Shown piece after piece: positions 1-55,000 of a stretch of 64,000 nucleotides of DNA. The first letter of the stretch is position 1. Each line of letters begins with the position of its first letter. Source of the DNA: a virus (lineage: Duplodnaviria > Caudoviricetes). Under the pieces are notes generated by a model, which did not search any database, was not told the origin of the DNA, and saw only the letters and a list, made by a program, of their open reading frames with translations. The stretch lies in the IMG/VR virus record IMGVR_UViG_3300025011_000016. One strand, written 5' to 3'. The position numbers and the translations under genes are program-made.

Positions 1-339
1 TTGAATTTATTATATGTGGGTAAAACAACAAAGGAAATTATAGAAAGACTTGATCTTCCGAAAAAAAATAAATTTAAAAGTTTAATCGACAATATAAGAC
101 GACGAAATATGGAGAGGATGATAATAAATATTAGATGAAGGCCCAACGACTATTGAAAGATATGTTTTCCGTTCAACATATTAAGTAATGTAGATATACA
201 AGTCAATTAATGGTATATCGAAATATGAGGCAATCCCTTTAAATATAAGGGTTTGAAGATATAGTCTGGTATCCTATAGAAATATAGGGAAGTTCATAAT
301 AGAACTGCATTATCTGACGAATAGTGTGAACATATCTCG
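1..339 (+). mobile_element. Group I intron, 3' part (portal intron A), with C-terminal end of an intron-encoded ORF (1..138)
   Basis: R/P7 element CAACGACTA near 145, S element GAAGATATAGTC near 255, shared P9 motif GGGAAGTTCATAATAGAACTG, ends ...GAACATATCTCG at G339. The frame-1 ORF tail resembles the C-terminus of the HNH in the terminase intron. Confidence 0.8.
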
Positions 340-1134
340 TATTATGAATTTCATTAACGAAGCAGATCGAGAAATCCATGTCTGCATATACAGTGATGTA
401 TATTAAAAAACTATTTTAATTGTCGGGGATCTCCTTAATGCTTTATTTAATAAAGATTGGACAATCCGCAGCCAAGATTCTATTTAATAGAATAAGGTTC
501 AACGACTATCGAAAGCTTTTAATTAAGTTAGTAGAGTAGATTACATATTGATGGTAATCGAAGTGGAGAGCTCCAATATTAAAATTAATTAATTTTAATA
601 TTGGATGAAGATATAGTCTAGTATCCTAATGTAAATTAGGGAAGTTCATAAGAGAACTGCATGTGAGTTATGACATATGTGAATATATCGTATGCCAAAA
701 CCCTAGTCATGGCAAATGCTAAGTTTGTCGGTCGAGTTATAACACATCAGGGATCATTTAATGGATCAGTTACTGAATTCTATAAGAAACTAATGGGATT
801 TGCAACTGAAATACCTGAGAATTTAATCGATGAATTTGAATATATATTTGCTGCACCGAAAACATTAACTAATACTAATCTAACTGATCTTATATCTAAT
901 GCTGAACAAACTGCTACATTTATTGTGAAATCATTAACTGGTGATAATTCATCCCCTAGTGATGATGATAACTTATTAAAAGATTTGTTATTTAATAAAA
1001 TCTCTAGAGAATTCCTACCAATGATTCCATGGAGTACTGCTGATACAATATTAGAGGAGTGTAAGATAGAATTGGAGAAGTTGAAAGCTGAAAAGAAAAT
1101 GACTACTCCTGAAGGTACTGAAGACGTACAATAA
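340..1134 (+). CDS. Portal protein, 3' exons (340..367 and 691..1134)
   Basis: Spliced reading IMNFINEAD|YAKTLVMANAKFVGRVITHQGSF aligns by eye with the T4 gp20-type C-terminal region (ELKFxKFIxxLQxxF). It sits directly beside the tube/sheath genes. Confidence 0.65.
368..690 (+). ncRNA. ORF-less group I intron (portal intron B, 323 nt)
   Basis: P1 exon GCAGAT pairs with IGS GTCTGC (U.G). Core motifs GGACAATCCGCAGCCAAG, GGTTCAACGACTA, GAAGATATAGTC. Omega-G at 690; frame restored. Confidence 0.9.
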
Positions 1135-1178
1135 AAAAATAAGTCTATGATGGTTAATTCCATCATAGACTTATTTTT
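1135..1178. terminator. Bidirectional hairpin terminator between convergent portal and tube genes
   Basis: 19-bp inverted repeat AAAAATAAGTCTATGATGG / CCATCATAGACTTATTTTT. Confidence 0.8.
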
Positions 1179-1183
1179 ATTAT

Positions 1184-7303: not shown

Positions 7304-10300
7304 TGAGTTCATCGAAGAAATCCAATGGTATACCTGTTTCTGATGACATATCATCATCAAAATTTTCAACATAATTTTTTGGTGGAATTAACATATCACT
7401 ATGCTTCATTTCCCTACGAGCTTTTTGGATTTCTTCAATTAATTTTATATTATAATCGTCTTGAGTTTTAACACCAACATCTTTAAAATATCCCTTGCTA
7501 TCATCCGAGAGTTCTTCATATAGTTCATCATATGTTAACCCTTTATTACGTTTTTCTTCGTCGGGTATATCTCCCCTGACAAAACCGAATCTATGAAGAT
7601 TATTTCCATGATAGAATACATATAGAACTATTAGATATGACATTATTGAATCGTCATGAAAAGAAGTCCCTGCAGCTATTTTACCAGTTTTAGTTTTAAC
7701 TAGTCGTAATAGATCATCAATAATATTACAGGTAACAAATTTATCTTTAAATTCATTCACATGTCGTTCAAGTAAACTCCTGTCGTGTTAGTAGTATTCG
7801 TTAGATACCACGATAACTTAACCGTTTAGGTTCTTTGAACCGTCCGACCAACGGCGAAATCTTTATTTACGTTAGTTAATAAAGATAGTTTAAATGTATT
7901 ATAAATATTAATAGCCGCATTGTTATCTCTATCATCTATATGTCCACATTGTGGGCAATTAAAGACTCTTTGAGATAACTTCATTTTAGTTTTAACTTTA
8001 TGATTACAAACAGAGCATGTAATGGTACTATTCGGTTCTGCTAAAATATATTCACTACCATAAAAACGACATTTATATTTTAACACCTGCGTAAACGTAA
8101 AGGCTCCAACTCTATGAATACCCCTATTAATACGCTTAATACCATCAGACTCTGTTAATAAATCTTTAAAACTAAATTCATCAACTACTACGTTTCTATA
8201 GGTCTTGGCTAAGAATGTAGATACCTTCTGAATATAATCCATTCTAATATTCACTATTTTGGCGTGAATATCATTAAGCTTGGTTCTCGCTTTTATATAG
8301 TTCTTTGATGGATTACGTTTATCATATTTCTTCTTAGAAACTATTTCCGAAAGCTTATCAGTTTTCTTCTCTAGTTTCTTAATCTTCCCTTTCGGAAATT
8401 TAGGATTTATGATATCTTTTCCATCAAAACAAACTACTGGATTATGTATCCCTAGGTCTATACCTATAGTATTTTTCTCATGGTTATGACTTGGATTATC
8501 TATTTCATATGTGAATGATACATAATATTTAAAATTCTCCATACTAATACTCATTGTTTTCATCTCATGATGATATAAGAAGCTTATATCTTCATATGTT
8601 TTTAATTCCATATGCCCATATTCTCTATTAATAATAAAAGAGAATTTATTTTTATCGAGAATCTTAACAGCAGCTTGCTTAATATATATTCTAAAAGAAC
8701 CATTTCCATGAATCTTTCTTTTGAAATGTAGTTTACATCGCTGCTTATTTTTAATATCTTTAAAGAACTTATTAACGGCTAAGTTAACATCACTAACCGT
8801 TTCATTTTTTATAGACTTATTATATTCTCCAGTCCATTCAAATCCAGGTTCCTTTTCTTTCTTAGAATATATATGAGTAATAAAATCAAATTTATCAAAG
8901 AACTTCCTTAAATCTTTATCTACAATATTACCATTAAATTCTAGGATCTTATTAAAATACTCTAAAGTATTATTATATACAAATCGTCTATAACCAAAGC
9001 ATTTGTTTAAATATGTTACTTGTTCTTTAGTTGGTCGTATTCTTGTTTTAAAAGTCTTAATCAATTTTTATTCACCTCCTTTCTTATATTATTTGTTAAA
9101 GGTATAATATAATTGTATTAGGAATGAATTAGTAAGACTTACGGTTAAGTTATTCTCTAAGTTTCCTTAAAGCACAGACTATATCTTCACCCATTATAAT
9201 AATAATTATAATGGGGCCACCCATTTCGATTTAAGGGATTCTCACCCACTCACTTGAGCCCTACTCCTTTACGGATAGTCGTTGAACCTAAATCTATAAA
9301 TAGATCATTGGCTGCAGATTGTCCAATCTTAAACATTGTTACTTTGTTGTAGTTTAAGCACTAAGGAGTTTCCCGCAATTAAAGTAGTTTCAATTACATA
9401 TTACTATGCAACGTGACTCATACATGAATCATAACTTCTCTGGACTTATCTCCGGTCCAAACACCATATAGTTTTCGTCTAGCTGATTCTAATTTTAACA
9501 TACCTTCTGAGTCAAGTTTATCATCAAGTCCGGATGAAACAAGATCTTTATCATTATCAAAGTATAAATTAGAGCGTATATCTGTTAATTTTAAAGAATC
9601 CATTATGGCTTCACCATTAAAATTACGTTCTATACATAATATAGACTTAGGGATATGATGTTTGATAAGAGTAGTTATAAATTTAATAGTCTGAACTACA
9701 CCTATATATGGTGATTTAAATTCAGCAACAGGTTTTATAGTATATGGGTCAAATACCGTAACGGCAGTATTATCTTTACCATAACCATTAGAGGTATCAA
9801 CTCCAACGAAGTATATCCTATCTTTCTTCAAGGGTTCATATATATCTAATTTAAATAGTTTATTTATAAATATTTCTTCCTTAATTGGCTTCTTCATTTC
9901 TTCAATAGTGGCCAAATCTTCTGCGGGGAAAGGAGATTCGGATGAACCCCTCATTCTTTGAAGGAAGACCTCTCTTTTAATCTTTACTGGATTATTCAGT
10001 AAGATCTGACAGATACTTTTAAACCATATTTCATCTTTACCAAGTTGTTGATATTGGTATTCAATATAGACGATTCCACTTTCAGAATTAATTGCAATAT
10101 ATTCATCTAAATCTTCTTTAGTCCAATCATAAAACTTTTCAGTCCAACGACAAGTTGTAGCGATAATCTTTAATGCGTCCTGACCTGCTGAAGTATCTAA
10201 ATCTCCCGTTTATATTCATATGAATCGTTAATTCATATAGTCCATACGGACATCCCTAAGTTTCTTTAGGATACTAGACTATATCTTCATCTCTTAATAA

Positions 10301-12014
10301 AGTAATTACTCATCAATAAGAGAGTTTCTTATTTCGATTTAAGGGATTTTTTTACCCACTCACTTGAGCCCTACTATTTAGTCGTTGAACCTTTCTCTGC
10401 TTAATAGTTATATTCTTTATTAATGTGATTCCAAAGTTTCCTATGCTTTATTGCAATAATTAGTGCGTAAAAACTATTATTTTCTTTCTTTTCTTTATAA
10501 CCATAAAAATTCATAATTTTCATCATAGATAACTTTTGTGTCAGCATATTACATATTTCTCTAATTGTTTCCTCACTATAAACATTATTATTGTTACTAA
10601 TTCCTCTACAATAATTATTCCCATGATCAACCGCGTGTAAATTATTTTCCGAATATGTTGTCCATTCCAAATTTTCAAAATAATTATTTTCAGTATTACT
10701 GTCTTTATGATTTACAATAATCCTCCCGACAGTTTCATCAAAACCTTTACAAAATTCCCATGCAACTAATCGATGCACACCTATATATCTTCTGACATTA
10801 TCATTATCTCTTAAATGTATCTTAACATATCCATTTTTATCTCTAAAATTAATTTTCCGTATTTTATCTTTCTTAATATCAAACACTTTCCCATAATTAC
10901 TAATCATATACCTATCTTTTTGTATATTCGGATAAGTAACTGGCCTGAATTCTTCCTTTTCCATAGCTATTATAATATGCATAGTATCGATTTCCTCCTT
11001 CTTTTATTAATTAGTTTAATTGAATGTATAATCTTATTTAAATATTAAACAGAGACTTGGCTGCGGATTGTCCAATTCTAAACATTATTATCTTAATCTA
11101 GGTTAATTACTCCCAGCCACTATTATAGAAATATAATAGTTTGATAGTCTAGACTCTAAGAGGTTCCCCGCAATTAAAGAAAATCCTATGTGATATCACC
11201 ATCACATAGCCCTAGTTAAAGGTGTACTTGTGAAAATACGTCCATATTGGGCATTATTCCTTTTGGCATTTTGAGAGGCTGTAAGATATGCTGGACCCGA
11301 TGCTTCAACTATAGTTTTAATAAAAAGGGTAAATTCAACTTCATCACAGTACTGAATCGGCTGAGTTGATCCGCGACCGATACCCTCAGCTCCTTCTACT
11401 GAACGAGCCGATGGTTTGGCAATTATTTTATTATTATTAGTTGGGTTGGAGAGAGATTTGACATTGTCGTCACCTTCTACTTTTTTACCCTCATCATTAT
11501 AAACAACTTTAAATTGTAAATATTTAGGTAATAAATCTCTCTGTTTTTTCATTCGCAACAAATTATCATTAGCATCCTCTTGACGCTTATTTAAAAACAT
11601 CATTTCTGAATTTGTTGTCCCGAACAAAAAGCTCCAATCAATAATTGCCAAAGCAGACTGTGTTTTACCTATTTGACGTGGAATTACCTCATATAAATCA
11701 ATTCCATTTAGGAAACACCAAGTAGCAGCTAAATTCGCCCTATTTAATTGATACGGAATTCCAGTTCCACCTTGATCTGGGATTAAACAAACTTCCCTTA
11801 AAAAATACCATGGATTAACAAGACACTCATTAATTATTCTGAATATTTGTTCGTCGGTTAAAAAAGGGGAGTATGGATCGACTCCCCTTAATGACATATC
11901 ATAGAGTTTCAAAAAGAACATATTATTCTTAATACCAAGTTGTCGTAAATCCATTGCAGTCTGTAGAAATGATATATTTCTGGTGTCTACATCATAATCA
12001 AATTTTCTAGCCAT
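7296..12014 (-). CDS. terL: Terminase large subunit, three exons (12014..11220, 10206..9428, 7779..7296), about 685 aa spliced
   Basis: Walker A PRQIGKT, Walker B YCDEVEF; junction FTSTP|GDLDT; nuclease FVGVDTS and HDDSIMS; junction REVM-M|SLLERH. Exon sum 2058 nt is a multiple of 3. Confidence 0.9.
7780..9427 (-). mobile_element. IStron-type element: group I intron carrying tnpB (terminase intron 2, 1648 nt)
   Basis: 5' flank ...TTATGAT; ribozyme core 9427..~9150 (TTAATTGCGGGAA, GGACAATCTGCAGCCAA, GGTTCAACGACTA, GAAGATATAGTC, GAAA-capped P9), then RBS + tnpB, ending ...ACACGACAG. TGT after P7 can pair with ACA before omega-G (P9.0); splicing restores the terL frame. Confidence 0.85.
7826..9064 (-). 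CDS. tnpB: TnpB RNA-guided endonuclease (IS200/IS605/IS607 OrfB family)
   Basis: KTFKTRIRPTKEQ HTH; RuvC I GIDLG, RuvC II VVDEF, zinc finger CSVC/CPQC, RuvC III DRDNNAAINI; catalytic D-E-D intact. Confidence 0.95.
   Translation of the reverse strand: MIKTFKTRIRPTKEQVTYLNKCFGYRRFVYNNTLEYFNKILEFNGNIVDKDLRKFFDKFDFITHIYSKKEKEPGFEWTGEYNKSIKNETVSDVNLAVNKFFKDIKNKQRCKLHFKRKIHGNGSFRIYIKQAAVKILDKNKFSFIINREYGHMELKTYEDISFLYHHEMKTMSISMENFKYYVSFTYEIDNPSHNHEKNTIGIDLGIHNPVVCFDGKDIINPKFPKGKIKKLEKKTDKLSEIVSKKKYDKRNPSKNYIKARTKLNDIHAKIVNIRMDYIQKVSTFLAKTYRNVVVDEFSFKDLLTESDGIKRINRGIHRVGAFTFTQVLKYKCRFYGSEYILAEPNSTITCSVCNHKVKTKMKLSQRVFNCPQCGHIDDRDNNAAINIYNTFKLSLLTNVNKDFAVGRTVQRT
10207..11219 (-). mobile_element. 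Group I intron with HNH homing endonuclease (terminase intron 1, 1013 nt)
   Basis: Core motifs flank the ORF, which lies between the Q and R elements (P6 region); omega-G at 10207; P1 is weak (CCT/GGG) but the frame gives TSTP|GDLDT. Confidence 0.85.
10401..10982 (-). CDS. NUMOD4/HNH homing endonuclease (I-HmuI-like)
   Basis: YMISNYGKV, VHRLVAWEF, VNHKDSNTENNYFENLEW motifs; AAGGAGG RBS inside the intron. Confidence 0.9.
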   Translation of the reverse strand: MHIIIAMEKEEFRPVTYPNIQKDRYMISNYGKVFDIKKDKIRKINFRDKNGYVKIHLRDNDNVRRYIGVHRLVAWEFCKGFDETVGRIIVNHKDSNTENNYFENLEWTTYSENNLHAVDHGNNYCRGISNNNNVYSEETIREICNMLTQKLSMMKIMNFYGYKEKKENNSFYALIIAIKHRKLWNHINKEYNY

Positions 12015-23854: not shown

Positions 23855-26676
23855 TTATGGTCTGGATTTAAAGAAAGAATCTATATAAGAAGCTTCTCTC
23901 TTTTTAAATGTTAATGGATTAATAAGTTGTCGTCCTAATGCCTGGAAGGATAAACCTATTAAGACAGAAGGATGTTTTTCTAATGCGGATTCAACAGTCA
24001 TTATTTGATACTCAGCTTTTTCACCATACTTACTGAAATCCGGTCTATATAAGATATCCTTACTGTGTCTTAATAGAGGGTGTATCAACAATTCACCATG
24101 AACCGCATCTGAATCAATTTTAGATTCGATTAATAGATCTAACATCTTTTGACATAACTCATCAACAGATCTACATCCAACATGATCACTTCTATTAAGT
24201 AAATACATGATGTTATAAAGAGGACGTGTCAATTCGTTATTCTCAATTTCTAATACGAATATCTTAGAATCATCATCAATTTTAGCAAAGTCAATTTCAT
24301 AAGCGTCTTTATGAGATTTACTCTTATTCATTAACTCAACTATATCTGGAGATATATATAAGTCTTTCTGATTCAATTCCATACATTCTATAATCTCACC
24401 AGATTTTTTATGTTTAACATGGAATATAGTTACAAATGTATTGAAATCAGTATCATCATATTCATTAATACTAATAATATTTTTATTAATAATAACTAAA
24501 GAATAATCATTTAAGTTAATGTCGTCATTAGTTATATTAAGAAGAATTTCATTTGCATTAATAGTGAAAAACTTATAGAAATCAGCATTGAATTCTATCT
24601 TTTCCGAAACTGTTGTTAGTAGGTGTTTAGTTGATAATACTCTCTGAGATACAGGTTCTGTTATTCTTGATCCAGCATATCCACCAATAGAGATACCTTT
24701 ATTGGTATGATATAGTTGCCCATAACAATGCCAACATATTCCATCTTTAGCTGAACAAGTTGCTGGAGATTTAACATAGATAGTTTTACCAACAATATTT
24801 TCCTCATGACCTTCAATGACGTTATAATCTCTAGTATTCTCAAGACGATAATATCTTCCCTGTAATCGTCTTAAATGCTCTTTAGTTTTGATTTCGTATT
24901 GAATTGAATGAATGCTATTACATGTTTTAACAGTAGGACTTAATTTTATTCCTGATGTTAAAAGCATTACTAATCGTGCAAACGTATTTTCATATAGATC
25001 GTAAATCCATACAGTTCTCTAATGAACTTCCCTATAACTATATAGGATACAAGACTATATCACCATCCAATGATGGATGATTCTTATTTCAGTTTAACTA
25101 TAAACTTACGAGCTTTTACTCTAGTCGTTGAACCTTTCTCTTAGTAAGAGTATTGGCTGCGGATCGTCCAATCTTCAATTAAGAAGTTCTAAGGAGTTCC
25201 CCGTCAATTAAAGAAATTTTCTCATTATATATTACTATATAATGCCACCTGTAATTGATGGCCAGATCTACCCATACGTAAGTTGACATTATTCGTTACA
25301 TAATGTAGTCCACAAAGAACTCCCTATATTTCTATAGGATACCAGACTATCTCTTCTCATTTAATTAAATGAGTCTCTCCATTTCGATTTAAGAGTTTTC
25401 ACACCCACTCACTTTGAGCTCTAAATTAGTCGTTGAACCTTTCTCTTATTATAAAGAGACTTGGCTGCGGATTATCCAATCTTAAACATTATTACATTAG
25501 TAGTTTAAGCAGTAAGGAACTTCCCGTCAATTAAAAGAGAAATGGCTAAAAATTAACCAGTTTATTCATAATTAATGATTTTCTTCCACCACGATACTTT
25601 CACATAGGTCGTTAATCCATGCAGTTCTCTTATGAACTTCCCTAATATTTATTAGGATACAAGACTATATCACAATCTTCTATATAGAAGATTCCATTAA
25701 TTTCGATATAACTTTATATCTACGAGTCACGCTCTAGTCGTTGAACCTTATTCTTATATAAGAATCTTGGCTGCGGATTGTCCAATCTTCAATTAGAAGT
25801 TCTAAGGAGTTTCCCGTCAATTAAAATAGTTTTACAACATAAGTCCACCTATGCCGCCCCAAGTTGTTTTAGGGAGTCAATATAGTAATTAGTGATGTTG
25901 GATAATCCCCCTACTATGAAGTTACTATTGATCGGATGGGGGATTGTATTTCCAGAAAGATCCGGCTTCAGCCCCCCACTAATTGCGAACTCTGCTAACT
26001 GTTTATGTTTAATCCCAGCACCAGATTTTAGTATTGGCTGTAGCATATTTCCAACAGGATCATTTTCTAAAATGGCAACTTGCTCATGCATTAGATCATC
26101 TAGTAATGATTCTATTTCCGTAGGTTGAAGTCCGTCTGGAATAACCGTTCGTATGATTTCGTTAAATCTAGGTATACGTTCGCTTACGTCAATAAACGTC
26201 TCAATATTAATTGATAACCCCAATATCATATTAAAGTCAGTTGATATTCTAGATAGATTGTGGATCATATCTGCAATTACTTTATTCATTTTAGTATTAC
26301 TGATAATCTTTCTAAATGGTAAAACTATCTTTCTATCAACATATGATTTGATATAATCTGCCGATATCTTACTACAATCAACTATATAAGATTCATTCAA
26401 TCTATCAATATAACCCAACTTCATCATCGGTGACCAAAACATATAATTTGTTAAGAAATGTCTTAATTGGAGAGTATGAATTTGTTCTCCTTCTTTATCT
26501 GAAAATTTAAAATACACTGGGCATGTTCTCAACTCCTTAACTTCAAACCCTCGTTTTAAATAATCATAGAACAACTCTAGATTAGCTTTGTAGTCCTTCT
26601 TAGTAGCCATTAAGTTTGAGATAATAAAGATCTTATTGGATAGCTCACTGATTATTTTTCCTACATCCGAATCCAA
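23855..26676 (-). CDS. Non-virion RNA polymerase beta' C-terminal subunit, four exons (26676..25871, 25591..25556, 25276..25258, 24982..23855), about 662 aa
   Basis: Spliced bridge helix YYIDSL|GGRKSLIMNKLV|MGRSGH|FARLVML; zinc motif CSAKDGICWHCYG; trigger loop AGSRITEPVSQRVLSTKH; region H IGLSFQALGRQL. Exon sum 1989 nt. Confidence 0.9.
24983..25257 (-). ncRNA. ORF-less group I intron (beta'C intron 3, 275 nt)
   Basis: P1 GCCAT/GTGGC; core motifs present; ends GAAAATACG. Confidence 0.9.
25277..25555 (-). ncRNA. ORF-less group I intron (beta'C intron 2, 279 nt)
   Basis: P1 TGGT/GCCA; core motifs present; ends CAACTTACG. Confidence 0.85.
25592..25870 (-). ncRNA. ORF-less group I intron (beta'C intron 1, 279 nt)
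   Basis: P1 CCCT/GGGG; core motifs present; ends GAAAGTATCG. Confidence 0.85.
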
Positions 26677-33434: not shown

Positions 33435-34139
33435 ATGAGGCGTTTGGATATTAAACCTGGAGAAAAATTTGGATTATGGACAATAGTTGATTCTCCAATG
33501 TTAATAAACTATTTAAAGAGAACTTCATTTTTATGTGAATGTAGTTGTTCTGATAAAACTCGAAGATATGTTAGCTCTAATAGTTTAGTTCGAGGAATAT
33601 CTACCAATTGTGGATGTGTGCGAAAAGTTAGTATTTTAAAAAGTAACACTAAGCATGGTTTTAGCTACAATAGATTATATGGTATATTATATGGTATGAA
33701 GAGTCGTTGTTTAAAGACTTCAACCATATCATATAAAAATTATGGTGGTAGAGGAATTAAAATTTGTGATGAATGGTTAGATGAAAAGACTGGATTAAAA
33801 ACGTTTATTGAATGGGCTATGAGAAGCGGTTATCAATCTAATTTATCAATCGATCGAATCAATAATGATGGTAACTACGAGCCATCTAATTGTCGTTGGT
33901 CAACTTCGTCCGAGCAAAATAATAATACTAGAAGTAATGTGCACATAACGATTAATGGAGTAACGAAAACTATGGGTATGTGGGCGAAGCAATATGGTAT
34001 AAATAAGGGAACTTTTAGTGGGCGCTTACGTAAAGGATTCCCAAGTACTATGCTTTTGAAACCACCCGGATATTTCAAAGATAGGTATCTTATTAAAATT
34101 AATCTCCCATCGGATGTTATAATCCATGAACATGATTAA
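33435..34139 (+). CDS. Free-standing HNH-type homing endonuclease
   Basis: CECSC...NCGC, YKNYGGRGIKICDEW, SIDRINNDGNYEPSNCRW. Confidence 0.85.
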   Translation: MRRLDIKPGEKFGLWTIVDSPMLINYLKRTSFLCECSCSDKTRRYVSSNSLVRGISTNCGCVRKVSILKSNTKHGFSYNRLYGILYGMKSRCLKTSTISYKNYGGRGIKICDEWLDEKTGLKTFIEWAMRSGYQSNLSIDRINNDGNYEPSNCRWSTSSEQNNNTRSNVHITINGVTKTMGMWAKQYGINKGTFSGRLRKGFPSTMLLKPPGYFKDRYLIKINLPSDVIIHEHD

Positions 34140-40540: not shown

Positions 40541-42630
40541 GTGTTAATGTCAAATGATGATATACGTTCAGTTATATTAGTTGATGAATGGGAACCTGAA
40601 GAAAGGGATGTGATTATCCGACATGATGGAAAACTAGTAATAATACCATTTGACAAAATATTTAACAAGGATAATATAACAAGTTTAAATACTTTTGTTA
40701 TTAAAAAAGAATCATATGTGAAACGTTTGGATCATGTACTGAATAAAGATGGCACTATATCTAAAGGTATATGTCATTATCTAAATTATTTCATTAAGTA
40801 TTATGATTTAGATAATGAGTTATTATTGTCATATATAAAACTCAAATACATTATTGACAATAAGAAAAAGTCTATTAAGTTAATATCTTTCATCAAGATG
40901 TTGTATTCTATTCTGTTTACAGAATCATTAAAGAATAAAATACGACACTTAGTAGAAGACAATTACCATGTTGATGTTACTTCACATAATGGTATTAAAT
41001 ATACCAAATCAATGGAATTTACAAATGAACATGCAAAACTATTAATGATGATCTCAATGAGTATGAAGATAATGGTTCCTATCATATTTCATTTTATCAA
41101 TTCGTCATCTATGTTAAAGGAACCGAATTATATCTTTCAATTTTATGAACGATTGTTCTATATGTATAAATATGATGAAGAGGTTGATATCTATAATAAA
41201 CTATGGGTATCTACATTGGCTAAAGTTAATGTGAATGCTACAAAACATCGAGTTATATGGGACCAGCGAGAAATATTTGGAACAGATCCGTTAATAGAGC
41301 TTGATAAACTATTAAAGGAGAAGATAATTTCTGAAACTATGTTCAAATATACATTTGATAAAAACATTATCAGTTTTAACAGTGTGGTAAAATAATCTAA
41401 TGCCACCTTTTCTTTAACTGACGGGAAGTTCCTTATAGCTTAAACTACTTAATCGTAATAATGTTTAAGATTGGATAATCCGCAGCCAAGATTCTTATAT
41501 AAGAATAAGGTTCAACGACTAGAGTGTGACTCGTAGATCTATAGTTTAGATTGAAATAAGAAAACTCATCTTAATTAAGATGAGAAGATATAGTCTTATA
41601 TCCTATATAACTATAGGGAAGTTCATAAGAGAACTGCATAGATTAACAACCTATGTGAACACGATGCTTAGAAAAACAGCTTGGTTACTTCATACGAGAA
41701 CCTTATGAATTCTCATTAATTGAGTTAAACAATAAAAAAGATCTCGACGGTTTTTTATAGAAGCCGGTTTTCTCTTAACTGACGGGAACTTCCTTATAGC
41801 TTAAACTACTATAAGTAATAATGTTTAAGATTGGACAATCCGCAACCAAGATTCTTAATACAAGAATAAGGTTCAACGACTAGAGTGTGACTCGTAGATT
41901 TATAACTAAATCGAAGTGGAGAAACTTCATAATATTATGAAGAAGATATAGTCTATTATCCTAAAGTAATTTAGGGAAGTTCATAAGAGAACTGTATAGA
42001 GTTATAATCTATATGAATATAAAGTTATCAGGATTAGATAAGCTTGAGATTAACAGTAATAAGATTGATGAATCTTTAATTATATTATCTGGGATTAATA
42101 TAAAGAAAACTATTAAGAGAATTAAGAATAAAATGAAAGTTAAGATCAGTGAAGATGAATTAGAATATTATAAGATCAATCATCACATTAATAAATTTCA
42201 TGTTAGTCTCATATTCTTTTTCTATGCTAGACATTTTGGTAATTATCGAGATCTTAATCTATTAACCCGAAGACAATATTTAACCTTACTAATACTTCTT
42301 AAACGTAAATTACAAATCCAAGGAAATACTTACTTACCCCAGGTTTTAACAAGTAACATTGAAGGTAAATTAAATACTCGTACAATTCAAAATACTAAAT
42401 TCTTAATGAAGATTGAAAATTCTTCTATATATCAATCATTAATGCAAGATAAATTTTCAACTTTAGAAGAATTAAAGAAATCTAATCTAATACTTAATCT
42501 ATTATCAACTATTCTTAATACAACATTTACATGTGTTGATTATGATAATCGAGACAAGTTGGGTACTACATTGGATATTAACTCTGATATGATATCCGAT
42601 GAGTTTCTTAATTTCTTGAATCAATTATAA
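40541..42630 (+). CDS. Candidate nvRNAP promoter-specificity (sigma-like, AR9 gp226/phiKZ gp68-type) subunit, three exons (40541..41388, 41667..41751, 42025..42630), about 512 aa
   Basis: Spliced frame FNSVV|LEKQLGYFIREPYEFSLIELNNKKDLDG|LSGLDKLE; exon sum 1539 nt. Size and position two genes from the chaperonin match my recollection of AR9 g228/g226. Confidence 0.55.
41389..41666 (+). ncRNA. ORF-less group I intron (278 nt)
   Basis: P1 GTGGT/GCCAC; P10 TCTAA pairs with exon TTAGA, fixing omega-G at 41666; core motifs present. Confidence 0.9.
41752..42024 (+). ncRNA. ORF-less group I intron (273 nt)
   Basis: P1 CGGT/GCCG; core motifs present; ends GAATATAAAG; frame restored. Confidence 0.9.
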
Positions 42631-42713
42631 CAAATCATTAATAGTAGTGAATCTTTTCGATTCACTACTATTAATAAGGAGGAATTCTATATGTATATAA
42701 AGATGAATAAATT

Positions 42714-44059: not shown

Positions 44060-44241
44060 AAAATGAAGATGGATAAACGATCATTTAAGATTGTTTATCC
44101 ATCTTCTTATATAAAAAAGAGGAGGACTGTGGGAAAAGGTAGTGAGCAATCTACCCTTTCTTAATTATCTGTTTAGTAAATTATTTACCAATATATAACA
44201 AAAGACATATAATTATTTTTTTTAATTATATGTCTTTTGTT

Positions 44242-45649
44242 ATATAGTCTGTGCTTTAAGGAAACTTAGAGAAATAACTTAATCAGTAGTCTTAATAATT
44301 CATTCCTAATAAGATATTATTATACTTATAACAAATAATATAAGAAAGGGGGTGAAGATAAATGATTAAGACTTTTAAAACGAGAATACGACCAACTAAA
44401 GAACAAGAGATATATTTAAACAAATGCTTTGGATATAGAAGATTCATATACAATAATGCTTTAGAATATTTTAATACCCTTTTAGAGCATAATGGTAATA
44501 TTATTGATAAAACATTAAAGAAGTTCTTTGATAAGTTTGATTATATTACTCATATATACTCTAAGAAAGAAAAGGAACCGGGATTTGAATGGACTCAAGA
44601 GTATAATAAGTCAATAAAGAATGAAGTGGCTAGTGATTTTAATATAGCTATTAATAAGTTCTTTAAAGATATTAAAGACAAGAAACGATGTAAATTACAT
44701 TTTAAAAGAAAGATTCATGGAAATGGTTCTTTTAGAATATACAAGACGAATAAAGGTAATGTTAAAATTATTGATAAGAAGTTATTCTCTTTTATTATTA
44801 ATAGAGAATACGGTCACATGCCATTGAAAACTTTTGAAGATATAAGCTTTTTATATCACTATGATATAAAAACAATGACTATTAGTATGAAGAATTTTAA
44901 ATATTATGTATCATTCACTTATGAAATAGATATCCCAAAGCATAAACATAAGAAAAATATGGTAGGTATAGATTTAGGAATACATAATCCAGTAGTTTGT
45001 TTTGATGGAAACGATATCATAAATCCTAAATTTCCGAAGGGAATTATTAAGAAACTAGAGAAGAAAGTTGATAAACTCTCAGTAATAGTTTCTAAAAAGA
45101 AGTATGATAAACGTAACCCATCAAAGAACTATATAAAAGCGAGAACCAAACTTAATGATATTCACGTCAAAATAGTGAATATCAGAATGGATTATATTCA
45201 GAAGGTATCTACATTCTTAGCTAAGACTTATAGAAACGTAATAGTTGATGAGTTTAGTTTTAAAGAGTTATTAACAGAGTCCGATGGTAATACGCGTATA
45301 AATAGAGGTATACACAGAGTTGGTGACTTTATGTTTACACAGGTGTTAAAATATAAATGTCACTTTTATGGTAGTGAATATATTTTAGCATTACCTAATA
45401 GTACCATTACATGCTCTGAATGTAATCATAAACTTAAAACTAAGTTAAAGTTATCTCAAAGAATCTTTAATTGTCCAATATGCGGACATATAGATGGTAG
45501 GGATAACAATGCTTCTATTAATATTTATAAGTCATTTAAAGGATCTTTATTAACTAACGTAAATAGAGATTTCGCCGTTGGTCGGACGGTTTAAAGAACC
45601 TTAACGGTTAAGTTATTGTGGTATCTAACAAGTACTACTAACACGACAG
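44242..45649 (+). mobile_element. 5'-truncated IStron copy: intron S/P9 remnant + tnpB + right end
   Basis: ATATAGTCTGTGCTTTAAGGAAACTTAGAG matches the terminase IStron just after its P7; upstream ribozyme core absent; ends ACACGACAG. Confidence 0.8.
44362..45594 (+). CDS. tnpB: TnpB, second intact copy
   Basis: About 80-85% identical by eye to 7826..9064; D-E-D catalytic residues intact. Confidence 0.95.
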   Translation: MIKTFKTRIRPTKEQEIYLNKCFGYRRFIYNNALEYFNTLLEHNGNIIDKTLKKFFDKFDYITHIYSKKEKEPGFEWTQEYNKSIKNEVASDFNIAINKFFKDIKDKKRCKLHFKRKIHGNGSFRIYKTNKGNVKIIDKKLFSFIINREYGHMPLKTFEDISFLYHYDIKTMTISMKNFKYYVSFTYEIDIPKHKHKKNMVGIDLGIHNPVVCFDGNDIINPKFPKGIIKKLEKKVDKLSVIVSKKKYDKRNPSKNYIKARTKLNDIHVKIVNIRMDYIQKVSTFLAKTYRNVIVDEFSFKELLTESDGNTRINRGIHRVGDFMFTQVLKYKCHFYGSEYILALPNSTITCSECNHKLKTKLKLSQRIFNCPICGHIDGRDNNASINIYKSFKGSLLTNVNRDFAVGRTV

Positions 45650-46078
45650 GATGGAGATATTGTATTTATTTAATATACCAGTTAATGTATTTACTTGCAA
45701 ATCTGTATTCAATTCAGGAAAATTCTCTAAAATCTCAAGTTTGAGTAAATCAAGATAAAGGGACGGCATAGTATGGCACAACTCCTTCCTATTTCTAGTA
45801 AGAGTATACCATACTAATGCCGTCAAATGCAACCCATATTGCTTGGATCAATAGATAAATATTTATTTTTATCGTATATATTATTAAAAATCTCTTCTTT
45901 ATAAATGTTTAAAATTAATTCATTCATCATATCATTACTTCCTTTCGTTATCAAATAATTAATAATTTGTTATCACGAAAGTAACTAATAATTCACGATT
46001 TGACAATTTATTAATTATGTCGTATAATGCGTCAACTACGACATTAAATCTACCAAAGATGGATCTGAATTTACAGAG

Positions 46079-46261: not shown

Positions 46262-46282
46262 AATAAAAGAGCCTTTCGGCTC

Positions 46283-46531: not shown

Positions 46532-46596
46532 TATTAGAATAAACTCTAGATAATTTTGTTTTATCTAGAGTTTAAATTGATCATCTTTGTCTGTGA

Positions 46597-48777: not shown

Positions 48778-49186
48778 TTATAGATGAATCAATATAGATT
48801 TGATTAGCATTGGCTACAGCAAATGTGAATGCTTCCTTGGCACCAAGCTTCACCCCATAAACAGCCAATGAAACATTTACTCCACCGGCGAAGACACTTC
48901 CTGTATTAGTATCCAAACCGATAACAGTTACCTCCCGACATGGTATATTAGGTAATTGAGTTCTGGTTCCAGCAGTAGTGACTAATTTTAATGCCCCAGT
49001 TAATGACGTACTACCACATAATGCTCTATATATACTAGATAACCATCCTCTGGCTCCAGTACCCCCAGTTGCTTGTGATACACCAGTAGCATCAGTTCCG
49101 TCTAATATAGCTGCCGCAGAATGCGTTCCATCAGGATTTTCTACAGCTTTAAATGGTACACCACCAATAAGAATTATTTTATCCAT
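48746..49186 (-). CDS. Small tail/structural protein of temperate-phage type
   Basis: Gly/Ala/Thr-rich; GC higher than flanks; co-transcribed with the SGNH spike. Confidence 0.5.
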   Translation of the reverse strand: MDKIILIGGVPFKAVENPDGTHSAAAILDGTDATGVSQATGGTGARGWLSSIYRALCGSTSLTGALKLVTTAGTRTQLPNIPCREVTVIGLDTNTGSVFAGGVNVSLAVYGVKLGAKEAFTFAVANANQIYIDSSISGEGVSYVAI

Positions 49187-49337
49187 TTTAACTTCAACTC
49201 CTTTGTATTATGTTATTTTAATATTATGTTTAATTCATTACCACATGAAGATTAATTATACTATTTTATAAGTATTGGTTATATATCTTTACCTCTAACA
49301 ATTAACTAATAATAACTAAAATAGGTGGTGTATATTT

Positions 49338-50528
49338 ATGGGACATTTAATTGATGAAAAAAGGTTTATAAACAATAACATCTTTAAATATGAAGAGAGG
49401 ATGAATTCTCAATACTCAAGATTTCTAGATAAAACCCCTACATTTATAACGTATTACAATATAAATAATATTACATCTATAACAGATACAGGTTTTTTAA
49501 ATGTGGAGCGTATTATTGATTATAATTCTCCTATACGATTTAAGCGAATTGATGATCTTCCAATTTATGGACTTGATACAATTCTGCTAGATTTAACAGA
49601 TGACGAAATAGGCCTAGATACTTCATATGATGGTGAAGTAGTTATATTACCTAATACCATACGGCCACTTCCTAATGATTGTTTTACGATAACATATCTA
49701 GATAGTAATTATTTATTTATGGTAACAACTGTTAATTATGATACCATTAAGAGTAATAACTATTATAAGATTTCATTTGTTATTAGATCGTTAACACCCG
49801 ATATTAAAAATCAATTATTATTACAGGTTGAAGAAGTATATAACTGTGTTCTAACTAATATAGGAACGCAGGAGAAATGTATAATTCGATCTGATATATA
49901 CGAGAAAATTATTCTTATGAATGAAATGTATAAAGAAATCTGTGAAAAATATAAAATATTGTTCTATAATATAAGATATAACAGTTTTATGTATATTGAT
50001 GAAATCAGCCATATAAAATACTATGATAAATATCTAACATTCTTTATTAATAAACATCAGTTATTTAATGAACGATATGAATATGATACATTGTTTTTAG
50101 TAAATGAGGATGACAATCATAAATTTCCTCTTGAATACGATAAGTCATTTTATCACATTTTAGAAAAAAATAAAAAGAGTATGATTCCAGAGCATATTAA
50201 TTATGCAACTGGTAGTGTAGCTAATACATCATCTATATTCAGGTACTATAATGACGTATATGTAAAGAGTATATATTTCTCAGATATTGGTTTGCCATAT
50301 ATTGATGATATACTTATTAATAGCATAATCAATAGTATACCATCAGATAAGGTTAGTTATAAAACAATTATTGATTATTTTAATAATAATGTGAATGTTA
50401 TCGATACATTTGATATGGGACCATTGGCTGAGAACGATTATATTGAGTACGATTTAAATTCATTCATTCTAATTCCTATGCTATTATTTATTCTCCGTGT
50501 GTACTATAATAAATTCATGGCGAATTAG
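49338..50528 (+). CDS. Virion structural protein (possible head-completion/neck)
   Basis: Late promoter 49297..49308; YDGEVVILPNTIRPLPND motif; family call weak. Confidence 0.5.
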   Translation: MGHLIDEKRFINNNIFKYEERMNSQYSRFLDKTPTFITYYNINNITSITDTGFLNVERIIDYNSPIRFKRIDDLPIYGLDTILLDLTDDEIGLDTSYDGEVVILPNTIRPLPNDCFTITYLDSNYLFMVTTVNYDTIKSNNYYKISFVIRSLTPDIKNQLLLQVEEVYNCVLTNIGTQEKCIIRSDIYEKIILMNEMYKEICEKYKILFYNIRYNSFMYIDEISHIKYYDKYLTFFINKHQLFNERYEYDTLFLVNEDDNHKFPLEYDKSFYHILEKNKKSMIPEHINYATGSVANTSSIFRYYNDVYVKSIYFSDIGLPYIDDILINSIINSIPSDKVSYKTIIDYFNNNVNVIDTFDMGPLAENDYIEYDLNSFILIPMLLFILRVYYNKFMAN

Positions 50529-50584
50529 TTATTTTTTTCTAAAACATTTAAATAAATAAGTGAATTATGTGAGGTGATTATATT

Positions 50585-50830
50585 ATGTTAAATAATCTTA
50601 AAAAAAGTATCAGAGAGAATCAAAACAGAGAATTTGTCACTGAAGCTACAATTAAACATACTACTGATGATGATATACGAGATATATTCTTAAATGATGA
50701 TTTAATGGATGGTGCTGAAGATGATCCTGAAATTACTAAACTGATTGATAAAATCCCCGAGTATGGAGATGCTGAGGATATCGATCTGGCTACACTCGAA
50801 GAACAATATATACCTGAAGGAAAAATATAA
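50585..50830 (+). CDS. Small acidic late protein
   Basis: Late promoter 50543..50554; GAGGTG RBS. Confidence 0.6.
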   Translation: MLNNLKKSIRENQNREFVTEATIKHTTDDDIRDIFLNDDLMDGAEDDPEITKLIDKIPEYGDAEDIDLATLEEQYIPEGKI

Positions 50831-51212
50831 TTACGGAAAGGGGTTTGAATATAAAATGAAAGTTACTAATAAAATGGTTAAAGTCCTCTCTAATGATATT
50901 ATATATCCAAAGGGAGGAATTTCAGGTCCAATCCTGACTCCATATATGGAGGATGTTCGTACCATCTTCATCATGATTACCCGCAACATAAAAGTTGTTG
51001 AGGTTCTTTCTGATGGATCTGAAGTGGTCCTGAACACTAAAAACTTCGATGCCAAAATCACTCCAGACGTGATCGAAGAGATTGTTGAACCTATCGTGGA
51101 GACAAAAGTGGAAGTGGTTCCTGTAATCGAAGAGATTAAACCGGTTATCGCAATCGCACAACCCACCAACCAGCGCAAAAAACCTGAACCCGATGCCATA
51201 GAAAAAAAATAA
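50745..51212 (+). CDS. Late protein, real start probably MKVTNK near 50856
   Basis: GGISGPILTP motif; high-expression codons; terminator hairpin follows. Confidence 0.55.
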   Translation: MIKSPSMEMLRISIWLHSKNNIYLKEKYNYGKGFEYKMKVTNKMVKVLSNDIIYPKGGISGPILTPYMEDVRTIFIMITRNIKVVEVLSDGSEVVLNTKNFDAKITPDVIEEIVEPIVETKVEVVPVIEEIKPVIAIAQPTNQRKKPEPDAIEKK

Positions 51213-52020
51213 TACTAAAGAAACCCCATATGTGTAATCTCATACACATATGGGGTTTCTTTTATGTTTAAGCCAATAATGGTCATTTAAATTGTTAATA
51301 GATATTCTCATCTTAATGAAAATATGTATTAAATACCTAAAACACTTTTAACCATTTTTATTTGAGTAATATTAAAGTTTACTCAAATCCTCCGATAGTA
51401 TCGCCTTCTAAAATAATATCTTCGCCTTCATCCATAGAGGGCTACATATATTATAAGTAGATACGCGGGCAAACACACCATCAGTTTTCTATATCAAACT
51501 AAGAAACTAACATATTTTGTACATGATATAGAGCGTCAACAACTATGTTATATTTCCTTCTACACGTTCAGTAATTATGTCTTAAATATCAAATATTTAT
51601 CTACGTCTAAACAACTTTATATTACAATCTCTAAACTATATACCCTTCCTACTCAGTAAATTGAATAAATGATATTTATACGATTAGTATAGAGGTTAGA
51701 AACTCCACATATTAATTATAATATATGCAGCTTTTCACCACCTTCCCTAGTAAGAATTGTATAATACTTTAATTAAGTATCGTTACAAACTTAAGAGGGG
51801 CCTCACCACCTTTCTATATATAATATAGTAGGTTAGTGATAAGGGTTAATAATAAGGCTTTGCTATATAATCACCTTCATTTCTGTTAACTATTATTGTG
51901 GTGACACATTATAACCATCCTTTCTTATTTTATAATACTTATATTAGTATAATATATATTTTAATTATCTTAAAATACGATAATGAGATAGAGCTATGTT
52001 TTACACATAGCTCTATCTCA

Positions 52021-55000
52021 TTAATCATTTTCGAAACGTGTCATCATATATAGTGTATGAACACCCTCATTGGTTGTCTTTCTCATATTACTACCAGCGA
52101 TATTTAGAATATGAGCTTTAGATGTCATAATTTCAATAGCTTCTTTATTAGCTTCTTGACTAAATAAACCCTTTACTGTAACCTGATCCAAAATATTCAT
52201 ATAGATATTTAATCCATACAGTTCTCTTATGAACTTCCCTATATTAATATAGGATATTAGACTATCTCTTCAATAGAATAAATCTATTGTTTTCCCATTT
52301 CGATATATAACTATATCTACGAATTACTTCTAGTCGTTGAACCTTTCTCTTATATAAGAGACTTGGCTGCGGATTGTCCAATCTTCCATTAAAGAAGCTA
52401 TAAGGAGTTTCCCGACAGTTAAGGAAAATACGGCAATACAATGACCGTCGTACATGTAAACTCCATATTTTCATATGGCATGGACTATATCTTCACCGTA
52501 TAATAATAAATTATTAATTAGGTGTCCTGCACTTCCCAACTAACCCACAAATTAGTCAGTACACTACTAACTACTATATAATTATATGATAGTAATTTTC
52601 GTTAGTCTCTACATCTTCTCTAATTAATTTACATATTTTCACATATTGTAATTTTAACATGGGGGTTTTTATTTTGGGTGTATCATTTAGTTTAGACTCT
52701 ATTTTAATCAATATTTCATTACGGGAATTTTTATCACAATAGAATACAAAATATCCTTGAATAATACGTCCAAATCGAACCGCATGAGTTACAGAACTTT
52801 TATTACTATCTATTGAATCAGCAAATGACTTCGCTCCTTGGAATATATGAAATAACCCATCTTTAAATGCAATTATAGGTTTAGATTTATCTCGTTTAGT
52901 TTGTTCAGAATGTCTAAATAATTTTGTACTTTCACTCATCTTATATTTAGACTCACTATTCATAGTTCCACCGACCCCACCTGTTTTCTTATTATATCCA
53001 ATATTAGGATCATTTGCTTTTAAAGTTGATATCCAATATACCTCTTTTTCGTTCATTTCATTTTTAGAGGTGCATGTGTCTATTATACTGCAATCAAAAT
53101 TATTAAATCCATATTCATTAACTATTTTTATAATATGATATAAATTCGATTTCCTATTAAGCTTTTTATACTTATAATCCTTAAGTCGTGAATGTAGATT
53201 TATTGTCTGACCAATATAAATTTTACCATCTATATTATTTCTCAACATATATATTACACCAAAATGTTTTTTCGATTCAATTATTAGATCATCATTATAC
53301 ATAATAACCCCCCTTATTATATATAAGTTAGTATAAAAGTATTTTTTTACAATATATGAATTTCGTAAATCAATTAAAGCTTGACACGGTATTTCCAGCT
53401 ATCCATATTTCAGGACCTTAGGTTCTCTTACGAAGCTTATTCGTCAATGCTTATTTCACTTCTACCGTTAGCATGAGTATTGTGATACCCATACACCGCC
53501 TGTTAAGCGTTCACAGGATTTTTAACTAAGCTATTTCTAGCAAAGGGAGACAACAACTTTTATCTCCGTTTAAACCAGGTAGATATAAATTTGACATACT
53601 CACAGTATCTGCAAATAGAGTGGATATTTCTTCTTTAGGTAAACTAAGATCGATCCTAGGATAATTCGTATAGACTCTATTTCCAATAAACATCGGTATA
53701 GTTTGGTGGGTACTTAGGACTGATATTTTGTTAGGAAAGCTACTGAAATAATCTGAAATAGGATATCTCGTAACGAATACCATTTTATCTGATGTAACAT
53801 CAACTGCCGCTTGATATAAAATATCACACCAAGTTGCCTTCCTTTGTACTAAGGGAGATTCAGTTTCAGGAACCCCTGGTTTATAATCTTTTCCTATAAA
53901 TCGCATATATAATTTCTTCCCATCAGATCTAGGTTCCTCGACGGGAAGTTCAATTGGTGTAAATCTATCGGATACACTAAATATGAATCTATCAATTTGT
54001 TTTTTAAGATATTCTTCGTTGAAATATAATGAGGGATCTTTTAATTTCACATATCCCATGGAACCGTCCGGATTTCTTACAGGATACTTATTACCAACCT
54101 TCTCTAATTCTCTATGGAAGAAATTTTTAACCCAATTTATTATAAATGGTGTAAATAATGAACATGTTTGTGCAAGAGGAATACCAACATGATAAAAATC
54201 TATTTGCATCTCAGATGGTTTATTTGCTTTGAATATAGGTGCAGAAATTCGTTTATTCATATAGAATATAACTCTATACAGTTCTCTCATGAACTTCCCT
54301 AATTTTCATTAGGATACTAGACTATATCTTCAGGAAATTAAGAATTCCTGAACTCCCATTTCAATACAATAATGTATCTAACTCACGGTAAATTAATATA
54401 ACCATATTTCCGTGTGATAGTCGTTGAACCTTATTCTATTAGATAGAATCTTGGCTGCGGATTGTCCAAACTTAAACATTGTTACTTTAAGTGGTTTAAG
54501 TTCTAAGGAGATTCCCGACAATTAAGGAGCTACGTGCAGTAAATCCACACTCCTCGATCCGAAATCAACCGATTTACCCATTAAATTTTTTCTAATTAAT
54601 CCATTCTTCTTTTCTATTCTACCTTTGAGCAAATCATAAATTTCTACTAAGACTTCCTGAACCTTAGCCCTAGTTCCATTAAGTACAAAATCAAAATTAT
54701 TGGAGTTCCTCAACACAGTTGCGAATCTTAATAATTTAGCGTACTTATCATTGATCTCATGATGACTAATCTTACCCTGTGTTGCTGATTGTAAATTAAC
54801 ATCACGATAGAATGCTGGCACTACAATCCAGTACTCAGTAAATAAAGTATCTTTATCATACGATCTCAGCAAGTCAATTCTTTCACTACGTATAGAACTG
54901 GCATTCTTTTCAAAGTTTATTTTTTCCCAATTTTTATATAAGAATTCTAATCCAGTCTCACCAGATTCCTCAGCTTCAACCAATTGTCCATTTTTATCTA

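Follow-up and report, generated by a model that had tools for sequence, protein, structure and literature searches.

A family of short group I introns in conserved genes of a predicted AR9/PBS1-like jumbo phage, with a sub-lineage found in that phage only

The phage DNA analysed here (IMGVR_UViG_3300025011_000016; Duplodnaviria, Caudoviricetes) is a stretch of 64,000 nucleotides, referred to as the window. It has a G+C content of ~30% and encodes tail sheath and tube proteins, TerL, a prohead protease, a chaperonin, pieces of a family B DNA polymerase (polB) and several RNA polymerase (RNAP) subunits. Its conserved genes are interrupted by group I introns (I1 to I12), most of which contain no open reading frame (ORF). 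Judged from sequence, these introns appear to be a family that has multiplied within a single viral genome, a clear example although one with precedents.

TerL exon 1 and a β′ exon match Bacillus phage vB_BpuM-BpSp (Takahashivirus, AR9/PBS1 group), Listeria phage LPJP1 and Staphylococcus jumbo phages at 29-44% identity (36-44% for TerL and β′ against BpSp), and proteins identical to those of the window occur on groundwater metagenome contigs of 248-272 kb. From these matches the window is predicted to be part of an uncultured AR9/PBS1-like jumbo phage of ~250-270 kb from groundwater or aquifer metagenomes. A crAss-like affiliation, prompted by a divergent polB domain, was ruled out by the TerL and RNAP matches to AR9-like jumbo phages.

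Group I introns and their splice junctions

An earlier note on this DNA had counted 12 group I introns in five conserved genes, eight of them ORF-less and 255-323 nt long. The count holds, and all lie at, or a few bases from, the places it implied. The same contig continues 4.6 kb beyond the window start, and this extension (locus L003) holds the rest of I1 and three further family members in polB, giving at least 15 family introns in the 69 kb of phage sequence made up of window and extension. Introns were mapped onto the orthologs of G001, an intron-free relative. Junctions were tested in two ways: by the rule that the 5′ exon ends in U and the intron in G, together with a complementary guide, and then by comparing the spliced product with an uninterrupted ortholog from G001 or from locus L006. 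The introns and micro-exons of the window are listed below, with scores against Rfam RF00028 where they were obtained and with splice junctions marked ^.

1..339, + strand: I1, the 3′ 339 nt of a 1173-nt intron (in full, L003:16043-17215) in a capsid-like virion gene; family profile matches
340..367, + strand: micro-exon of 28 nt between I1 and I2, encoding IMNFINEAD; spliced alignment to the L006 ortholog
368..690, + strand: I2, ORF-less, 323 nt, capsid-like gene, ortholog residue 415/416; RF00028 64.1 bits, splice check
7780..9427, − strand: I3, TnpB-carrying, IStron type, 1648 nt, TerL residue 529/530; RF00028 83.9 bits, TnpB domains
10207..11219, − strand: I4, 1013 nt, TerL residue 268/269, with an HNH/NUMOD4 ORF (10982-10401) in the P6 loop; split profile and Rfam matches, Pfam
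24983..25257, − strand: I5, ORF-less, 275 nt, RNAP β residue 293/294, guide GTGGC; RF00028 69.1 bits, P1 pairing, splice check
25277..25555, − strand: I6, ORF-less, 279 nt, RNAP β ~residue 287, guide GCCA; RF00028 67.8 bits, splice check
25592..25870, − strand: I7, ORF-less, 279 nt, RNAP β residue 274/275, guide GGGG; RF00028 68.8 bits, splice check
41389..41666, + strand: I8, ORF-less, 278 nt, RNAP subunit phrog_25005 residue 264/265, guide GCCAC; RF00028 53.4 bits (sub-region search)
41752..42024, + strand: I9, ORF-less, 273 nt, RNAP subunit phrog_25005 residue 293/294, guide GCCG; RF00028 57.5 bits (sub-region search), splice check
52189..52443, − strand: I10, ORF-less, 255 nt, RNAP β′ residue 473/474, guide GCCGT; RF00028 69.8 bits, splice check
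52444..52452, − strand: micro-exon of 9 nt between I11 and I10, TACGACGGT (Y-D-G); gap-free NGD^YDG^DQVTV against the G001 ortholog
52453..53561, − strand: I11, 1109 nt, RNAP β′ residue 470/471, with a GIY-YIG ORF (53302-52574); Pfam GIY-YIG, splice check
54250..54546, − strand: I12, ORF-less, 297 nt, RNAP β′ residue 242/243, guide GCAC; RF00028 65.7 bits, splice check

In all 12 introns, and in two off-window copies, the 5′ exon ends in U and the intron in G. Spliced TerL, RNAP β, the RNAP subunit, β′, the capsid-like gene and polB contain no stops, and no indels at the junctions, when compared with intron-free orthologs. For all eight exon ends quoted in the earlier note (GCAGAT, CCCT, TGGT, GCCAT, GTGGT, CGGT, GTGT and ACGGT), the intron has, 6-13 nt from its start, a pairing guide that begins with G; a 4-bp P1 helix on its own is not rare by chance.

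I1 carries an HNH/NUMOD4 endonuclease ORF in its P6 loop, the last 45 codons of which are window positions 1-135, and splicing at CTCGGT^ gives a product that is gap-free against the 740-residue intron-free ortholog. The guide of I2, GTCTGC, pairs with the exon end GCAGAT, that of I11, GTCTCC, with GGAGAT, and I4 is joined as TSTP^GDLD. The 3′ end of I8 is 41666 by ortholog alignment, not ~41663, which sets the exon between I8 and I9 at 85 nt; a resemblance between the flanks of I6 and I8 vanished after this correction. The other exons between neighbouring introns measure 36, 28, 19, 9 and (off-window) 6 nt, those of 19 and 36 nt flanking I6. The 6-nt exon (ATGGGT; L003:20374-20379, 4 kb before the window start) lies between two adjacent introns that split polB motif A as D-M-D^M-G^A-F-Y-P, and all six of its nucleotides make up the P1 helix of the downstream intron.

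Nine of the 12 introns score 53-84 bits against RF00028, for which the gathering score is 50 bits. A scan of the whole window returned seven introns above this cut-off, and two more (41368-41618 and 41743-41976) were recovered when the sub-region was searched alone. The whole-window scan lost these two introns at 41.4-42.0 kb to speed filters, and counts from single genome-wide cmscan runs are therefore underestimates. The ORF-bearing introns I1, I4 and I11 give split or weak matches because the ORF interrupts them (for I11, 25.6 bits over the 3′ part).

The motifs that the earlier note quoted as common to the introns are real and non-random: GGTTCAACGACTA occurs ten times exactly and 12 times with up to two mismatches, against 0.78 expected, and the motifs overall have 10-12 occurrences against 1-3 expected. 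Pairwise identity among the eight ORF-less introns is 61-81%, and across the family it is 61-86%, to which matches to a family profile are added. An RNAalifold consensus of the eight ORF-less copies has 51 pairs, 22 of which show double compensatory changes, including pairs of the long-range P3 helix. This pattern points to ribozymes under selection, not decaying repeats, and to genuine, structurally intact group I introns, each of which would have to self-splice from the mRNA of an essential gene. By resemblance they are IA2-like, through blastn similarity to the ribozyme of the c-st IStron, which its authors classed as IA2 (PMC4227781).

The proposal that the introns form one ribozyme family stands for 11 of the 12, including the TnpB intron, on the basis of profile matches and trees. 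It does not extend to the GIY-YIG intron I11, the ribozyme of which is of a different subtype, has only the P7 3′ motif in common with the family and gives no match to the family profile in its 5′ half. Summed contig depth in the source samples over the most conserved core words is ~20x the phage's own depth (a rough figure).

Relatives, shared sites and a six-intron clade

An alignment-based scan of viral contigs yielded 76 loci from relatives, 28 of which carry family members; a single-protein scan of viral contigs with the tail sheath gave no match. RF00028 detects no group I intron in two complete genomes, G001 (218 kb) and G003 (234 kb). G002 (250 kb) has 16 RF00028 matches, or ~20 with the family profile, and G004 (187 kb) has eight, or ~10. 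The present phage, G001 and G002 are about equidistant, with a mean protein identity of ~52-56%. The expansion is not confined to the present genome, given the family members in G002 and G004 and six sites in common.

These six sites, each also filled in G002, G004, L014 or L082, are β′ 242/243 and 473/474, capsid-like 415/416, β 274-276, and polB 419/420 and 495/496. The capsid-like site (I2) is filled in both G002 and G004, the I7 site in G002 (with an HNH ORF) and G004 (without an ORF), the I10 site in G002 and the distant relative L082, and the I12 site in G002. Found in this phage alone are two TerL sites, β 287 and 293/294, RNAP subunit 264/265 and 293/294, β′ 470/471 and polB 497/498.

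All sites lie in catalytic or otherwise invariant motifs of essential genes (TerL, the capsid-like gene, polB and three RNAP subunits). I12 interrupts the conserved β′ motif G-K-S-V-D-F-G-S-R-S^V, I10 lies inside the catalytic D-Y-D-G-D motif, which is split as D^YDG^D, and β is split within L-G-G-R-K...M-G-R-S-G-H^F-A-R. The arrangement illustrates how much interruption an essential viral gene can take while remaining usable, with catalytic motifs of RNA and DNA polymerases split around exons of 9 and 6 nt. Gene callers break such split genes into pieces, and the annotation of jumbo phages therefore needs intron-aware models.

We built a maximum-likelihood tree from 247 core columns, with the guide region removed, of 48 introns (from this phage, G002, G004, four other relatives and three outgroups). 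I5, I7, the off-window polB intron Pc, I8, I9 and I10 are all ORF-less, occupy six sites in four genes and group in a clade that excludes every other intron (Shimodaira–Hasegawa-like approximate likelihood ratio test 94; ultrafast bootstrap 88, or 97 in a smaller tree), in which I8 and I9 are sisters. Its members are 78-86% identical to one another and at most 77% identical to any intron outside. A second clade joins the TnpB intron I3, the HNH intron I4 and I6 (96.5/85), I1, I2, I12 and the further family member Pb are loosely placed, and the introns of G002, G004 and L014 cluster among themselves. The family members of this phage comprise at least three sub-lineages. Uniting same-site introns of different phages by constraint costs 176 log-likelihood units, and such a tree is rejected (approximately unbiased (AU) test, p ~1e-4).

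With this clade and the rejection of the same-site tree, ribozyme cores appear to track phage lineage and not insertion site. The data fit intragenomic spread or homogenisation of cores, and not site-by-site vertical descent; the six-intron sub-lineage would have arisen, or have been homogenised, in this phage's own lineage. The earlier note had proposed repeated ectopic spread of one ribozyme lineage and had named independent origins as the outcome that would speak against it. Phylogeny instead gave a six-member clade exclusive to this phage, at six sites, as the proposal predicts. The proposal does not cover seven other introns (I1, I2, I3, I4, I6, I12 and Pb), which are no closer to one another than to the introns of G002 and G004 (72-79% identity to the latter). 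This phage clade makes an unusually clean comparison, with two complete genomes in which all sites are empty, two that are intron-rich, and the present phage, to which four of the six clade sites are unique.

The seven introns, several of which are at common sites, would agree with separate acquisitions, in which each intron homed independently from co-infecting phages already filled at the site and ORF-less copies arose by decay or deletion of the endonuclease gene (the Goddard-Burt cycle). So would the presence of both HNH-bearing and ORF-less introns among relatives at β 275/276 (rpoB275/276) and polB 419/420 (pol420), and the position of the ORFs in a P6 loop that is a short hairpin in ORF-less copies. 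We nevertheless regard this explanation as somewhat unlikely: it leaves the six-member, phage-only clade at six sites unexplained, and same-site introns of different phages are not closest relatives, as the AU test shows. Simple endonuclease loss, which the earlier note had set against ectopic spread, accounts for some ORF-less copies, namely at the two common sites where relatives' introns occur with and without an endonuclease gene; the introns of relatives do not all carry their own endonucleases.

Homogenisation would take the form of concerted evolution. The introns would be old and inherited at their sites, conversion from intron to intron within a genome would have homogenised the cores while selection kept the guides, and there would have been little or no recent colonisation. 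In its favour, the cores group by genome although six insertion sites coincide exactly with those of G002, G004 or L082. Paralogs share identical tracts as long as ~57 nt, which would support homologous recombination, and the P5 extension is mosaic within the six-intron clade. A home-made test of the pairwise homoplasy index type also indicates recombination (p = 0.03 for the clade, 0.008 for all window introns and <0.001 for G002/G004), but it is confounded by covarying paired RNA columns, in which neighbouring bases undergo compensatory changes. Moreover, four of the six clade members occupy sites that are empty in every relative examined, and two complete, equally close relatives are intron-free, so that wholesale precise loss would be needed. 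Three sub-lineages persist in one genome and even in one gene, where I6 lies between I5 and I7, which argues against efficient homogenisation. We therefore consider concerted evolution unlikely and, because of the four sites empty in relatives and the coexistence of three sub-lineages inside one gene, favour real colonisation for the six-intron clade.

A separate observation concerns the ends of G002 (L087 1-250 and L098 ~228.2 kb; also ~18.5 kb and ~246.4 kb), near which the β′ 3′ region and the RNAP β region are each present twice, in non-identical form. The probable explanation is a circularly permuted genome whose assembly joined overlapping ends of two strains. Intron content differs between the versions (β 241/242 in one, 275/276 with an HNH ORF in the other).

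Possible routes to new sites

How group I introns that lack an endonuclease come to occupy new sites has long been asked, with little documentation so far. An endonuclease ORF in a peripheral loop of the ribozyme, as in mobile introns, is present in three of the 12 introns (HNH/NUMOD4 in P6 of I1 and I4, GIY-YIG in I11). The window has five nuclease genes besides the shared lineage of its two tnpB copies, and its nuclease genes include two HNH genes and one GIY-YIG gene in introns, tnpB and one free HNH gene:

33435..34139, + strand: free-standing HNH gene, preceded directly by a polB gene and followed by a radical-SAM gene (region to 35236); PHROGs phrog_374 and phrog_3377, E 1e-51 to 1e-56

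No counterpart of this gene was found by tblastn in G001, G002 or G004. Introns cluster at spacings of 6-88 nt. Only 28 nt separate ORF-less I2 from the HNH intron I1, and 9 nt separate ORF-less I10 from the GIY-YIG intron I11, distances well within co-conversion range of these nuclease-bearing introns. A reverse transcriptase (RT), which the earlier note had suggested looking for, was not found: no RVT_1 domain is present in four complete relatives (including two intron-rich ones) or in the window's 50 largest ORFs. Invariant motifs are the usual targets of homing nucleases. Since no RT was found, the sites lie in invariant motifs, nucleases are abundant and two ORF-less introns neighbour nuclease-bearing ones, we favour a DNA-level, nuclease-initiated route, every step of which we infer. 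As a whole, this reading (one intron family of an AR9/PBS1-like groundwater jumbo phage clade, with a sub-lineage of the phage's own lineage, spread by that route) seems to us probable, with some reserve.

On the DNA-level route, homing nucleases (intron HNH, GIY-YIG, free HNH and TnpB) would make double-strand breaks during mixed infections, and these would be repaired by recombination. ORF-less introns may have been co-converted with a neighbouring nuclease-bearing intron, may have been mobilised in trans, or may be the remnants of introns that lost their own nuclease gene. New positions could then be seeded when, on rare occasions, illegitimate repair takes place at a look-alike site, and the guide there would be tuned by selection for splicing.

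Several observations weigh against this account. Among metagenome contigs from four DNA runs, no intron-free allele was seen on 40500-55700; these contigs contain no exon-exon joins across introns and only repeat-induced joints among intron copies. The six-intron clade could stem from gene conversion among old introns, not from new insertions. Six of ~15 sites are common with a relative whose introns are not the closest kin, which calls for the same sites to have been colonised repeatedly or for ribozyme cores to have been replaced. Neither the triplet I5-I6-I7 nor the pair I8-I9 lies next to a nuclease-bearing intron, none of the ORF-less sites could be linked to a nuclease, and the phage sequence covered amounts to 69 kb. 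Finally, a bias towards GGT^ at the 5′ exon end would also fit RNA-guided site choice.

This bias is seen at 6 of 15 sites in this phage (p = 4e-6) and at 11 of 26 distinct sites overall (p = 2e-10), against a background of 3.2% of T positions in host exons. Across the sites mapped in the window, G002 and G004, ~40% end in GGT, with CCT and GAT as the endings of further groups. I1, I9 and I10 all use CGGT with the guide GCCG, and I9 and I10, which belong to one subclade, have CGACGGT^ + ATCAGG in common across the junction. The bias fits a guide-directed RNA step; it equally fits a need for a stable P1 in AT-rich exons, or the choice of look-alike sites by nuclease or microhomology. The differing guides themselves, which the earlier note emphasised, are no evidence of a special route. 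A site-matched guide is obligatory in any functional group I intron, and each copy carries a guide complementary to its own 5′ exon end because it must splice itself out; the match is a precondition of splicing and uninformative on the route.

In an RNA-level transposition, excised introns would reverse-splice into transcripts at guide-matching sites (mostly ..GGU), be copied to DNA and recombined, and their distal guide positions would adapt later. Besides the GGT bias and the three CGGT sites, this would agree with the proximity of sister introns in one transcript (I5 and I7 separated by 55 coding nt, I8 and I9 by 85 nt). However, no RT was found, the similarity of ribozyme cores is not significantly correlated with that of 5′ exons (Mantel r = 0.19, p = 0.12), and the likeness of I9 and I10 reaches into the 3′ exon, where reverse splicing requires no match. 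P1 stability explains the GGT bias equally well, as said above, and sites that are all invariant protein motifs are a nuclease-target signature. We therefore consider RNA-level transposition very unlikely. Reverse splicing with adaptation of the internal guide sequence, the first of the routes raised in the earlier note, is left with the GGT site bias and one look-alike site pair in its favour. A variant that we hold to be highly doubtful is RNA-guided spread by reverse splicing, with the source transcript as the preferred target, at ..GGU sites matching a conserved GCC core of the guide, followed by fixation in DNA without a phage-encoded RT. If true, it would explain why sites are biased to GGT, why sister introns in one gene lie 55-85 nt apart and why there is a triplet of CGGT sites.

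TnpB elements and comparison with known systems

I3 combines a group I ribozyme with an IS200/IS605-family tnpB within one spliced element, the removal of which restores TerL, and is an IStron in this sense. It consists of the ribozyme (~9427-9150), with the P9 hairpin kept, the tnpB ORF (9064-7826; domains OrfB_IS605, HTH_OrfB_IS605 and Cas12f1-like_TNB) and a 46-nt tail ending in ..GACAG. Its boundaries, 9427..7780, come from a gap-free ortholog alignment; 9421..7777 were dropped because only the former pair aligns without gaps, and an alternative boundary (CATGT^ ... GGAG^) would add one residue. The 5′ flank, TTATGAT, is TGAT-like; flank and end are similar, not identical, to the group A IStron rule of TTGAT, ATTAT or TTTAT and TCAG (PMC4227781). 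A second tnpB element lies elsewhere in the window:

44242..45651, + strand: second tnpB element, 88% identical in DNA to I3 (9184..7778), covering the P7 3′ strand, P9, tnpB and the right end; blastn, tblastn

The TnpB encoded by this element is 83.8% identical in amino acids to that of I3 (tblastn). Because it is without P1-P8 and intergenic, we interpret it as a 5′-truncated IStron copy. It lies directly 3′ of a terminator-like hairpin. Neither I3 nor the copy at 44242-45651 contains a second ORF that could be tnpA, and TnpB-only IStrons have been described (PMC4227781). Summed contig depth over tnpB is roughly 6-7x the phage's own depth, which suggests ~6-8 copies per phage genome. One contig form skips 44351-45543 and looks like a tnpB-deleted derivative elsewhere in the genome.

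That the ribozyme of the TnpB intron belongs to the same family as the others, as the earlier note had stated, agrees with its position as sister to I4 + I6. The suggestion that the IStron was assembled locally by capture of tnpB is plausible as well, because this ribozyme groups with resident introns and tnpB was not found by tblastn in the near relatives G001, G002 and G004. I3 would then be a resident family ribozyme joined to a tnpB module downstream of P9, plausibly within the phage lineage. The direction may also be the reverse, with the resident ORF-less introns derived from IStrons.

A likeness to the clustering of related introns is seen in Staphylococcus phage Twort, whose orf142 reportedly holds three closely related ORF-less group I introns (a finding attributed to Landthaler and Shub, 1999, and cited via PMC4853749). 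There too several similar ORF-less introns of IA2 type lie near each other in one gene, implying duplication to nearby sites; in the present phage related copies extend over four genes, and relatives show which sites are new.

In AR9, RNAP subunit genes are split by group I introns, some with HNH genes (PMC5312081). AR9/PBS1 and Takahashivirus-like phages resemble the present phage in type (two multisubunit RNAPs), in the genes that host introns and in having HNH genes inside introns, and the 3′ half of the ribozyme is 77-81% identical to introns of PBS1, Internexus and Listeria phage LPJP1 (blastn). Compared with AR9/PBS1, the introns here are denser (at least 15 in 69 kb, with micro-exons of 6, 9, 19 and 28 nt), mostly ORF-less, and include a phage-specific subclade and TnpB-bearing members.

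Jug (jumbo gut) phages are described as having on average 18.5 short group I introns per genome in terL, nrdD and DNA polymerase genes, together with many stand-alone homing endonucleases, and metatranscriptome reads backed splicing for about half of the predicted introns tested (PMC12880540). They are likewise jumbo phages in which essential genes are cut by many short, mostly ORF-less introns and HNH and GIY-YIG genes are numerous; they differ in clade and habitat (Bacteroides-infecting, gut), and the passages covered contain no within-genome phylogeny and no site-by-site comparison of intron-free and intron-rich relatives such as is given here (PMC12880540). For the Bastillevirinae, 45 introns are recorded across the group (PMC11878797).

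Known IStrons include the CdISt1-type group A and, as a phage precedent, CbISt3 and CbISt4 of Clostridium phages c-st and D-1873 (PMC4227781). They likewise have a group I ribozyme 5′ and an IS200/IS605-family tnpB towards the 3′ end, all in a spliced element (PMC4227781). I3 differs in being without tnpA, in its 5′ flank (ATGAT, against TTGAT) and in its 3′ end (ACAG, against TCAG). The window family is ~71% identical to the c-st IStron ribozyme over 66% of its length (blastn), but the ribozyme of I3 falls in the phage's own intron family and not in the clostridial IStron branch, and its TnpB is 26% identical to that of c-st. Intron-rich jumbo phages, phage genes with several introns and phage IStrons are thus all published and known in kind; the present case adds a phage-specific subclade and a comparison, site by site, with relatives that have no introns.

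Two other genes of the window deserve mention. The tail sheath gene (2073-4472, − strand) encodes 799 residues, against 613-630 in all relatives, and its extra ~185 residues, near the N-terminal third, resemble inserted Ig/FN3-like repeats. A Cpn60/GroEL-type chaperonin gene lies at 37868-39679 (+ strand).

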